Shown piece by piece: positions 2,385 through 4,207 of a stretch of DNA of 64,000 bases; the stretch's first letter is position 1; every line of letters starts with the position of its first letter. The translations under genes and the position numbers were made by a program. Under the pieces are notes generated by a model that saw only the letters and a program-made list of their open reading frames with translations, searched no databases and had not been told where the DNA came from. The stretch covers positions 1,248,001-1,312,000 of the forward strand of contig CAWFFN010000005.1 in assembly GCA_963815115.1 (NCBI GenBank), read 5' to 3'. Source of the stretch: an uncultured delta proteobacterium. Lineage in GTDB: Bacteria > Desulfobacterota > Binatia > DP-6.

Positions 2385-2470
2385 GCCGCCGGGCGACCGT
2401 ACGTTCCCCGGTCGGTCACGATTGCCCACGCCGGGTCGAGCGCGTCGGTCTCTGTTGAACCCCGGATCCG

Positions 2471-2896
2471 CTACCCGTGGGGCTGGTCGACGGGTTCTCC
2501 GGCCGCCTTCCAGCCCTTGAGTCCGTCGACCATGACGCTCACGTCGGTGTACCCGGCTTCGACCGCCCGACGGGCAGCCGCGTGGGACGCCAGTCAATGG
2601 ATGTTCGCGCAGTAGAAGACCAGCCGGGCGTCCTTCCGAGGCGGCAACTCCTTCGCCACGTCGTACTTGTTGTCACTCGACAGGAGGACCGCGCCGGGAA
2701 TGACGCCCTCTCGCGCCCGGAAGTCCGGCGCGTTGGCGTCGAGCACCGTGACGGCCGCGTTCGGGGCGGCTCTCAGGGCGACGAGGTCGTTCACGTGGAT
2801 CAGCTTGAAGCCGTCGCCCGCTGGCGCCGCAGTCGCCGTCCCGCTCACGAATACGGCAAGCACGAATACGGCGGGCAACAGCCGAACGAGTCGCAT
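2471..2896 (-). CDS. Exported rhodanese-domain protein with in-frame TGA (probable selenocysteine, C-x4-U motif)
   Basis: Signal peptide, LDAN, GVIPGA, LVFYCANIH-TGA-LASHAAARRAVEAGYTDVSVMVDGLKGWKAAGEPV; the canonical rhodanese C-terminus lies after the TGA (2594-2596); TAG at 2471-2473. Confidence 0.8.
2560..2580 (-). promoter_or_regulatory. Candidate bacterial SECIS hairpin
   Basis: CGGCUGCCC-GUC-GGGCGGUCG stem-loop 14-34 nt 3' of the UGA, GU in the apical loop. Confidence 0.6.
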
Positions 2897-3006
2897 GTCC
2901 GGATCGTAGCTCGACCGTCGCTCTGGCACAACGAGAATACCCGGATGCCTCTCCTCCACGACCAGCCGCCGCCCGCGCTCGCGCGACTTGGCTTCGGCGG
3001 GAGACA

Positions 3007-3064: not shown

Positions 3065-4207
3065 ATGCCGATTTCGCGCTCCATCTTCCGGTCGATCGGT
3101 GCAGGGCTGGCGATCATGCTCGCTGCCTCGGGCCCCGCATCGGGCGCTGACGCCGCCGTGACGTGTAGCGCCGCCAAGGGCAAGGCGGCGGGGACGAAGG
3201 TCGACGGGAAACTCGCCTGCGCGGCCAGGGCCGCAATCAAGGGTGAGGCCGCAGATCCTCTGTGCCTGGCGAAGGCGGAGCACCGGTTCGAGCGTGCCTT
3301 CGAGAAGGCGGAAGACAACGCGCAATCCAGCGGCGGCTGCGCGACGGTCGGCGACGCGGCGGAGGTCGAGGCGCTGGTCGACGCGTGCGTGAACGACGTC
3401 CGGAGCCGCCTCGGCGTCGCGGGCGCAGCGCAGGCCGCCTCGAGGTGTACGGCCGACAAGCTGCGTGCCACGGGAACGGCCGTGAATGGCAGTCTGGTGT
3501 GCTGGGCCAAGGCGGCGGCGCGTGGGGCAGCCGTCGACTCCGACTGTCTGGCGAGGGCAGCGGCGAGATACGGCAACGGCTTCGCGAGGGCGGAATCGAG
3601 GGGCGACTGCCTCACGACCGGCGATGCGGCGGCGGTCTTCACGGCGGTCGACGACTGCGTCGCTGCCATCGTCCCGGCACTGGGCGGCTCATCGACGACC
3701 ACCACCATCACGAGCCCCGCCTCGACCACGACGACACTCGCGTGCGGCACCGAGCCGGCGGCGGTCCGAGGCGTCACGGCACGGCACAACCAGGTGCGCG
3801 CGAGCGCGACGCCGGCGCCCAACCCTCCGCTGAACCCGCTCTGCTACAGCACGACCGTGCAGGCGACGGCGCAGGCGTGGGCCGATCGCTGCCACTACGA
3901 GCACAACACCGCGCTGCGCGGTGTCTACGGCGAGAACATCGCTGCCTACGGATCGGCTTCCGGTACGGTGGTGGGCGCGGCCGGGCTCTGGGCTGCCGAG
4001 GCGCCGAACTACACCTACTCCAACAATCGCTGCTCCGGCGTCTGCGGCCACTACACCCAGATGGTCTGGCGGTCGACGCAGCGGCTGGGGTGCGGGATCA
4101 AGGTGTGCACGACGGGATCGCCCTTCGGGCACGACTACCCGACGTGGACCTTCATCGTCTGCGACTACGATCCGCCGGGGAACTGGGTGGGGCAGAAGCC
4201 GTACTGA
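3065..4207 (+). CDS. Secreted CAP/SCP (PR-1-like) domain protein with two N-terminal Cys-paired helical repeats and a Thr linker
   Basis: Signal peptide; HN..R, GENIA, CGHYTQMVW, LGCG, VCDYDPPGN CAP motifs; repeats C..AK.KAAG.K...C...AA..G..D..CL.KA. Confidence 0.88.
   Translation: MPISRSIFRSIGAGLAIMLAASGPASGADAAVTCSAAKGKAAGTKVDGKLACAARAAIKGEAADPLCLAKAEHRFERAFEKAEDNAQSSGGCATVGDAAEVEALVDACVNDVRSRLGVAGAAQAASRCTADKLRATGTAVNGSLVCWAKAAARGAAVDSDCLARAAARYGNGFARAESRGDCLTTGDAAAVFTAVDDCVAAIVPALGGSSTTTTITSPASTTTTLACGTEPAAVRGVTARHNQVRASATPAPNPPLNPLCYSTTVQATAQAWADRCHYEHNTALRGVYGENIAAYGSASGTVVGAAGLWAAEAPNYTYSNNRCSGVCGHYTQMVWRSTQRLGCGIKVCTTGSPFGHDYPTWTFIVCDYDPPGNWVGQKPY

Follow-up and report, generated by a model that had tools for sequence, protein, structure and literature searches.

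A probable selenoprotein rhodanese with a C-x4-U catalytic loop, cut short by annotation, in an uncultured Binatia bacterium

Within the 64,000-nucleotide stretch of DNA analyzed here (the window; contig CAWFFN010000005.1 of assembly GCA_963815115.1, G000:C5:1248001-1312000, from an uncultured Binatia bacterium), a minus-strand gene at positions 2471 to 2896 encodes a rhodanese domain whose annotated reading frame ends at a TGA codon in the catalytic loop. Comparison with its relatives indicates that this is very probably a genuine selenoprotein gene that has been mis-annotated. The explanation that best accounts for the observations as a whole, to which we assign a probability of about 0.9, is that UGA101 is read as selenocysteine (Sec) by SelB-dependent decoding at a selenocysteine insertion sequence (SECIS) hairpin, yielding an exported rhodanese with two chalcogens in its active-site loop.

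The open reading frame called with translation table 11 starts at ATG 2896-2894 and stops at TGA 2596-2594, its last residues reading ...RLVFYCANIH. Past the TGA the frame stays open for exactly 40 codons, LASHAAARRAVEAGYTDVSVMVDGLKGWKAAGEPVDQPHG, and closes at TAG 2473-2471, so that both the truncated call and the extension lie on the minus strand where a preliminary description of the sequence had placed them. With TGA translated as U the product has 141 residues, and its match to the Pfam Rhodanese profile (PF00581) runs through the TGA, from residue 40 to residue 132 (E 1.2e-11; 45.4 bits, cut-off 22.2), in keeping with the earlier proposal that the extension is the C-terminal half of a rhodanese. 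The loop around the TGA reads FYC96-ANIH-U101-LASH, which places the TGA five residues past the catalytic Cys (C-x4-U). Feature positions are collected in Table 1.

Table 1. Features of the rhodanese gene and their positions in the window
Feature	Positions	Strand	Basis
Probable complete selenoprotein gene, predicted exported single-domain rhodanese, 141 codons + TAG	2471..2896	minus	translation with TGA = U, Pfam, AlphaFold2, Foldseek
Start codon and predicted Sec-type signal peptide MRLVRLLPAVFVLAVFVSGTATA	2828..2896	minus	sequence; cleavage after A-T-A guessed
Cys96 (TGC), predicted canonical rhodanese catalytic cysteine, at end of strand 91-95	2609..2611	minus	alignment, AlphaFold2, TsoB alignment
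In-frame TGA, probable selenocysteine codon 101	2594..2596	minus	TGA/Cys column, contigs of 4 runs, second Sec of TsoB
Predicted SECIS hairpin, 9 bp; conserved 7-bp core 2562-2578, apical loop GUC 2569-2571	2560..2580	minus	comparison of Sec and Cys forms
40 codons past the TGA: predicted helix 103-113, strand 118-122 and helix 125-131 of the rhodanese fold	2474..2593	minus	orthologue conservation, AlphaFold2

The UGA/cysteine column and the Sec machinery

The strongest indication of selenocysteine comes from the column occupied by the TGA. A metagenome scan (from which the best 80 of at least 407 confirmed relatives were used), together with genomic loci, gave 93 gene copies at 92 loci (12 genomic, 80 metagenomic), and the column holds TGA in 61, TGC in 25 and TGT in 7 of them and no other codon; the resulting Sec:Cys ratio is not a population estimate, as the retrieval patterns and motif filter demanded the family loop and the filter required Cys at the first position. 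In an independent protein alignment of 23 rows, every row (23/23) has Cys at position 96 and Cys or Sec at position 101. The TGA column is shared down to about 50% identity, and the 40 codons downstream are the best-conserved part of the protein. A UGA conserved among orthologues with Cys elsewhere at the same column, one of the marks of a bacterial selenoprotein, is thus present, and the question raised in the preliminary description, whether homologues carry Cys or UGA there, is answered by 61 TGA and 32 Cys codons without a single non-Cys sense codon.

The same column is seen in assembled genomes and in protein records. A search of 41 related genomes, the window's own included, with stop codons read through (E<=1e-10) found the gene in 10 of the 41, with exactly one TGA in nine of 12 match rows; the remaining three rows come from G001 (the N-terminal part of a copy broken by a frameshift), G032 (a tandem paralogue) and G036. 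The TGA column is identical in G001, G007, G008, G009, G020, G024, G025 and G032, and is Cys in G036 and in the G032 paralogue. A further scan, of genome contigs, yielded 6 loci, of which 3 duplicate genomes already included. Among protein records, 172 collection matches were obtained at E<=0.001, and of the 120 matches listed 34 were examined. Of these, 21 (59-100% identical to the query) end exactly at ...FYCA[ND/S]xH, among them the window's own record (P0002, ending ...CANIH) and clusters that one source names 'rhodanese-related sulfurtransferase'; the full-length proteins read FYCANxxC[MLTK]ASH..., which agrees for the Cys forms with the YCANxxC motif named earlier. All 21 Sec-form records, P0002 included, end at residue 100, and the truncation by standard pipelines that had been foreseen is thereby borne out.

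That the TGA is a nonsense mutation or sequencing error, leaving a pseudogene or a 100-residue fragment, would fit the behavior of gene callers, which stop at it and produce those 21 records out of 34, and the additional frameshift in the G001 copy. Set against it are a TGA that keeps its column in 61 gene copies, even where identity falls to about 50%, a downstream segment of 40 codons that is the best-conserved part of the protein and in which strain differences are synonymous only, and the lack of two helices and one strand of the fold that a 100-residue fragment would suffer. The sequencing reads argue in the same direction. Among the runs listed, 20 contain part of the stretch, each with at most 0.33 of the sampled words, and four independent ones were compared: contigs of DNA runs X1 and X2 and of metatranscriptome runs X6 (2410-2864) and X16 (2496-2837) span 2594-2596 and show no other letter there. 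These contigs are 90-99% alike and thus represent close strains, which need not be the organism of the window. Where they differ, at 2582, 2558 and 2552, the change falls in the third position of a His, Glu or Gly codon, is synonymous and lies outside the stem described below. We therefore give a nonsense mutation or sequencing error next to no credence.

The machinery that decoding would require is encoded in the genome (6.89 Mb in 12 contigs, completeness 100). No selA, selB, selC or selD lies within the window, as had been observed at the outset, and the genome-wide search proposed then finds a full Sec system on another contig, C12: adjacent selA (548.9 bits, cut-off 267.9), selB (351.7, cut-off 242.25) and selD (372.5, cut-off 125) at C12:419444-423705, and a tRNA-Sec at C12:592977-593068 (65.8 bits, cut-off 47; called by ARAGORN as tRNA-SeC with anticodon tca). 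Genome-encoded SelA, SelB, SelD and tRNA-Sec, a further mark of bacterial selenoproteins, are accordingly all found.

A second candidate selenoprotein gene, AhpD-like, occurs in the same genome (G000:C5:493251, plus strand; locus L125, 397-1464). It reads ...RLNDCHY-U-IDAHEGF, with a C-H-Y-U motif, scores 77.5 bits with TIGR01926 (just below the cut-off of 81.8) and 45 bits with ahpD_dom (against 27.8), and its UGA is followed at +22..+40 by a hairpin of 8 bp with the loop GGC. It emerged from a crude genome screen for TGA between stretches with coding-type G+C content at third codon positions, which gave 193 candidates, read by eye and mostly ordinary gene boundaries; the screen is not a complete selenoproteome, and this one candidate was examined further. 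TIGR01926, with a CxxU motif, is catalogued as a selenoprotein family (PMC13188914, in the parts of that review available to us). In view of this TGA-containing gene and its hairpin, the Sec system probably serves at least two genes in the genome, with similar hairpins.

The distribution of Sec and Cys forms was followed in a quick maximum-likelihood tree of 85 distinct sequences (54 Sec, 31 Cys; 108 columns with the Sec/Cys column masked, root arbitrary), which needs at least 7 changes of Sec/Cys state, at least 2 of them forced by well-supported branches alone. The two forms are interspersed in this tree and were exchanged more than once, with about seven switches probable. One genome, G032, carries a Sec-type and a Cys-type rhodanese copy in tandem (L029, 1378-2447; G032:C22). 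A separate record, P0014, is 94% identical to the window protein over the shared part, with Cys at the column and its N-terminal part in another frame, which suggests either that Sec and Cys were exchanged very recently or that the record is chimeric or mis-called.

A hairpin that accompanies the UGA

Downstream of the TGA, positions 2580-2572 can pair with 2568-2560 in a stem of 9 bp, including one G-U and one U-G pair, closed by a GUC loop (2571-2569); the hairpin spans the 14th to the 34th nucleotide past the TGA (+17..+37, with the U of UGA as +1), precisely the element with a GU-containing loop that the preliminary description had pointed out. Since the window hairpin alone folds no better than shuffled sequence, it was tested by comparing Sec with Cys forms, using 53 distinct 60-nt Sec-type and 32 distinct Cys-type stretches in ungapped alignment. 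The five inner pairs (columns 21-25 with 29-33) are all standard in 53/53 Sec forms and in 2/32 Cys forms, and the seven pairs of columns 19-25 with 29-35 in 47/53 and 1/32, respectively; the minimum free energy over columns 17-37 is -14.1 +/- 2.0 kcal/mol for Sec and -6.0 +/- 2.6 kcal/mol for Cys forms. Conservation does not extend to the two pairs at the base of the 9-bp stem, which are kept in 5 and 35 of the 53 Sec forms. Among the 53 Sec forms three pairs are invariant and pair 21-33, never broken, is C-G in 43, U-A in 6 and U-G in 4. Shifting the pairing partner by 1-3 columns lowers pairing from 84.9% to 24-55%, and the covariation score and the count of double changes were reached by none of 500 shuffles, figures that relatedness inflates, so that the main weight lies on the contrast between Sec and Cys forms.

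The clearest signal of the hairpin is in its synonymous sites, which are frozen in the Sec forms. Codon 6 after the TGA (Ala) is GCC or GCT in 52 of 53 Sec forms, with one TCC, and takes all four Ala codons in Cys forms; codon 7 is GCC in 52/53 Sec and 12/32 Cys forms; codon 8 (Arg) is CGG or CGT in 53/53 Sec forms and, in Cys forms, CGC for 12 of 14 Arg and often another residue altogether; and codon 9 is CGG or AGG in every Sec form (53/53) and varied in Cys forms. Within the element the third position is free at codon 8 alone (G or U), in the apical loop. Codons 2, 3, 13 and 14 are freely variable in Sec and Cys forms alike.

A hairpin in the same register, built from other sequences, is present in six distant C-x4-U rhodanese genes of the same phylum and in five TsoB genes, with stems such as GGCAGCG/CGCUGCC, UCCGCCA/UGGCGGA and GCUGC/GUAGC, the last with a GGUC loop. 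Different stems in one register read as covariation across families. The conserved stem begins at +19 and has its apical G at +26 (U of UGA = +1), positions that we take to lie within the range usual for bacterial SECIS elements. An Rfam scan of 2400-3000 at E<=10 returned no SECIS family and two chance-level sRNA matches. It is thus by comparison of relatives, with Sec-specific conservation (53/53 against 2/32) and a shared register in distant genes, that a SECIS-type stem-loop downstream of the UGA and inside the coding region is recognized, and that the claim of a SECIS-like hairpin is sustained.

Read-through of the UGA by other means, with a near-cognate Trp or Cys insertion or an altered code and the hairpin acting merely as a stimulator, has to be weighed at this point. 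Hairpins past stop codons are able to promote read-through, as is generally known, and selenium in the window protein is deduced from sequence. Yet the column alternates with Cys codons alone, never with Trp or others, the genome has a complete Sec system, and the position of the hairpin and its G-containing apical loop fit the geometry of bacterial SECIS elements; TGA also terminates many genes of this genome in the ordinary way, and three orthologues end in TGA as well. On these grounds read-through lacking Sec is highly improbable. The three orthologues (L025, L026 and L029) use TGA for Sec101 and again as a true stop about 40 codons later, and UGA decoding in them is therefore context-dependent within a single mRNA.

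Fold, catalytic loop and export

AlphaFold2 (AF2), run on the 23-row alignment, returned a model with a pLDDT of 88.6 (about 97 over residues 31-140) and a pTM of 0.77, in which strand 91-95 leads into loop 96-102 and helix 103-113, so that the TGA falls in the active-site loop. Foldseek against the PDB gave 55 matches at E<=0.001 (E down to 9e-07) whose titles, as read, are nearly all rhodanese domains, including 6mxv, 2hhg, 3nhv, YgaP and the periplasmic polysulfide-sulfur transferase Sud (1qxn). The alpha/beta rhodanese fold thus joins the profile score in placing the protein in PF00581, and C96 directly after strand 91-95, with the next helix from 103, occupies the catalytic-Cys position of that family. 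From the strand-loop-helix arrangement of the model and the Foldseek matches, Cys96 is predicted to be the canonical catalytic cysteine and Sec101 the penultimate residue of the loop.

With classical rhodaneses of the GlpE/PspE type (Sud 1qxn, 6mxv, 2hhg) the protein shares the fold (Foldseek probability 1.00, TM-score about 0.6-0.67) and a catalytic Cys that follows the central strand; Sud and PspE are periplasmic, as the window protein is predicted to be. They differ from it in having one Cys and no Sec, and their loop is two residues the shorter (CGGGFRS or CAGGLRS, compared with CANIHULAS). The profile alignment with PDB sequences places the extra residues explicitly, pairing FYC-anskCmA-S with FYC-GGG--FR-S (6mxv) and FYC-AGG--LR-S (2hhg); the classical rhodanese loop ends in Thr or Ser. 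An arsenate-reductase or Cdc25-type reading, with its C-x5-R loop, was rejected: the residue after Sec is L, M, T, R or G, with no conserved Arg.

Export of the window protein is well supported by its predicted N-terminus, MRLVRLLPAVFVLAVFVSGTATA|AP, in which a basic n-region precedes a hydrophobic core of 12 residues and an A-x-A site, and where pLDDT falls to 56-67 (residues 1-30). A similar N-terminal peptide is found in nearly all complete family genes, Sec and Cys alike (N-termini read by eye), and lipoboxes (VAGC, VVGC, VVAC and VLGC) occur in the same-family genomes G007, G008, G009 and G020; judged in this way, one or the other kind of export signal is typical of the family, in line with the signal peptide first noted. 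Five relatives (L055, L057, L058, L078 and P0025) have twin-arginine-like N-termini (RR-S-[FI]-[LV], for example RRSFLAAIVG) in place of a plain Sec-type signal, which suggests twin-arginine export of a folded selenoprotein in some lineages.

Relatives, possible mechanism and gene neighborhood

Rhodanese-like selenoproteins had been reported before, as the preliminary description stated: a 2026 review of prokaryotic selenoproteins lists five forms in the parts available to us (PMC13188914), namely form 1 with UxxS, form 2 with UxxG, form 3 (NF041203) with CxU, form 4 with UxxG and form 5, TsoB, with UxxxxU; the exemplar of form 1 is WP_010941598.1, attributed there to Zhang and Gladyshev 2005. 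A 'CxxxxU' motif is absent from those passages and from the full-text literature searched (subscription journals and supplementary files being outside its scope), in which TsoB appears only in the 2026 review and Binatota together with selenocysteine yields nothing relevant. No NCBIfam model reaches its cut-off for the window protein.

The best NCBIfam match is TsoB (NF045694; E 6.1e-14), at 51 bits against a cut-off of 805 and over profile positions 40-158 of 572. With 141 residues and one Sec, the window protein is not a TsoB: it lacks the DsbD-like membrane domain, has Cys at the first position, and carries a predicted cleavable signal peptide (in relatives, a lipobox) where TsoB has a membrane anchor. 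Its likeness is to the N-terminal rhodanese domain of TsoB from the same phylum, which reads ...IVFY-U-AGL[TA]-U-VRSDSAARVAVKLGY and aligns at 34% identity (E 2e-14) without gaps through the loop, pairing TsoB FY-U-AGLx-U-VRSDSAAR with FY-C-ANIH-U-LASHAAAR, so that C96 falls on the first Sec and U101 on the second. The ungapped alignment identifies the predicted Sec of the window protein as the homologue of the second Sec of TsoB, and the hairpin after that UGA in TsoB is in the same register as the window's. Two-TGA TsoB genes above the cut-off were found in 15 of 201 sampled genomes of the phylum, and none in the window's own genome. The second-best NCBIfam match, NF041203 (form 3, rhodanese_LYCAU; E 5.2e-11), likewise combines one rhodanese domain with a Sec that follows the catalytic Cys in the active-site loop; its Sec lies 2 residues past the Cys against 5 in the window protein (C-x4-U), and the score of 42.3 bits is below the cut-off of 115, which places the window protein outside that family.

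The motif of form 1 is present in U-L-A-S, and Ser stands at U+3 in 53/53 Sec forms. Of 401 genomes of the phylum searched with a profile, 131 gave matches; close orthologues (E<1e-40) are limited among those 401 to the window's class (G032, G296), and many weaker matches have one TGA. All six such loci that were read are C-x4-U-x-x-S (UMAS, UGQS, UVLS/UKLS, UVLS, ULPS, UALS), some distant C-x4-U loci being multi-domain proteins of 460-500 residues. Because U-x-x-S recurs in 53/53 Sec forms and 6/6 distant loci, form 1 is probably the same Sec site as that of the window family, matched here by motif only and described without the upstream Cys; the form 1 entry, in the available parts of the catalogue, mentions neither an upstream Cys nor export nor soil Binatia-type members. 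Exported proteins of about 400-550 residues with tandem C-x4-C or C-x4-U rhodanese domains also occur in the phylum (L130, L131, L133, L138 and L155), and may be relatives of the Geobacter rhodanese-like lipoprotein ExtH, compared by its description only in the parts of PMC5877670 available to us.

The window protein is therefore of a recognized kind, the rhodanese-like selenoproteins, closest to the head domain of TsoB. The earlier description of a 'hidden' selenoprotein holds for the databases, in which it is truncated, and fails for the kind, as Sec rhodaneses including the U-x4-U TsoB were already catalogued; its reading of a periplasmic C-x4-U Sec rhodanese truncated by pipelines is supported by the column, the hairpin, the Sec machinery, the contigs and the records. 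A bolder view, which we consider doubtful, is that these genes constitute a sixth, uncatalogued form: an exported, stand-alone, soil-wide C-x4-U rhodanese in which Cys96 and Sec101 would form a catalytic selenenylsulfide. On that view it would be a periplasmic reductase module for persulfide/polysulfide (or selenium), recycled in trans by a DsbD-type protein, and would have given rise to the TsoB head or descended from it.

In the proposed mechanism, SelA and SelD would make Sec on tRNA(Sec), and SelB with Sec-tRNA(Sec) would bind the GC-rich hairpin beginning 14 nt past the UGA and deliver Sec to the ribosome. The signal peptide would then export the product, leaving a mature form of about 117 residues that consists of a single rhodanese domain. 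Its loop, two residues longer than the classical one, would present two chalcogens, the canonical Cys96 and Sec101 just before the next helix; one would take up sulfane sulfur (or selenium) and the other attack it, giving an intramolecular Se-S bond that a periplasmic DsbD-type thiol-reducing system would reopen. A DsbD-like protein is encoded in this genome on contig C9 (242429-243619). The domain would in this way act as a periplasmic redox relay or reductase for persulfide/polysulfide-type substrates and not as a plain transferase. The Cys96/Sec101 relay is proposed because both loop positions are only ever Cys or Sec, and because TsoB, which has Sec at both, continues into a fused DsbD-like module; relatives of such modules carry reducing equivalents across the membrane. 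By analogy with that fusion, we hold the relay to be slightly favored.

A selenoprotein that is a plain sulfur or selenium carrier or transferase, with Sec101 tuning the Cys96 persulfide and neither a Se-S cycle nor DsbD-type recycling, is a possible though rather unlikely alternative. It would suit the rhodanese fold with Cys96 in its canonical place, the lack of a linked reductase gene at the loci examined, and the precedent of exported rhodaneses such as Sud, which act as polysulfide carriers (by the title of 1qxn and by what is generally known of its function). It sits poorly with a second position that is strictly Cys or Sec in all sequences seen, with both positions being Sec and fused to an electron-transfer module in TsoB, and with Sec being nearly always a redox-active residue in known selenoproteins, according to the available parts of reviews.

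Several points weigh against the selenoprotein relay as a whole. Sec at the UGA and translation past it are deduced here from sequence comparison, and the contigs from RNA libraries are a hint, not proof, of transcription. The window hairpin alone (76 nt folded) has z = -0.45 against shuffles, unremarkable in G+C-rich DNA (70% for the window), and, most stem pairs being invariant, covariation within the close family comes down to one pair (21-33), beside the cross-family comparison. In the closest genome, G001, of the same genus, the TGA and hairpin are kept and a frameshift near codon 77 splits the copy (L027/L034), which may mean that the gene is dispensable or that the assembly is in error. 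Substrate, Se-S bond and reductant are suggested by motif position and the TsoB fusion only. The gene neighborhood, finally, gives no functional clue: neighbors differ between genomes, and only a gene for an oligopeptide transporter of the OPT family is shared, in 3 loci.

That OPT gene lies downstream on the same strand in the three examined loci of the G032 subgroup (L029, L035, L036) and, at so few loci and in one subgroup, was set aside as functional context. In the window, the neighbors encode an alcohol dehydrogenase, an enoyl-CoA hydratase, a CAP-domain protein, a cytochrome P450, a short-chain dehydrogenase/reductase and a hydrolase. The divergent neighbor (3065-4207, plus strand) encodes a protein of 380 residues that starts with a signal peptide, continues with repeats rich in Ala and Cys, and has a CAP (cysteine-rich secretory protein) domain at its C-terminus (Pfam E 2.5e-17).

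The window gene leaves knowledge of Sec decoding unchanged; its interest lies in the family. As Sec-form records stop at residue 100 and no NCBIfam model reaches its cut-off, annotation pipelines lose the C-terminal third and the selenium site of the Sec forms, in a family that is common in soil metagenomes, with at least 61 TGA-bearing copies from one metagenome scan and a few dozen genomes. The family connects TsoB, itself poorly understood, with a simpler domain that stands alone and lends itself to expression and assay, and it offers a natural and compact series of Cys/Sec pairs, including a tandem Sec and Cys pair, for what selenium adds to a rhodanese loop.

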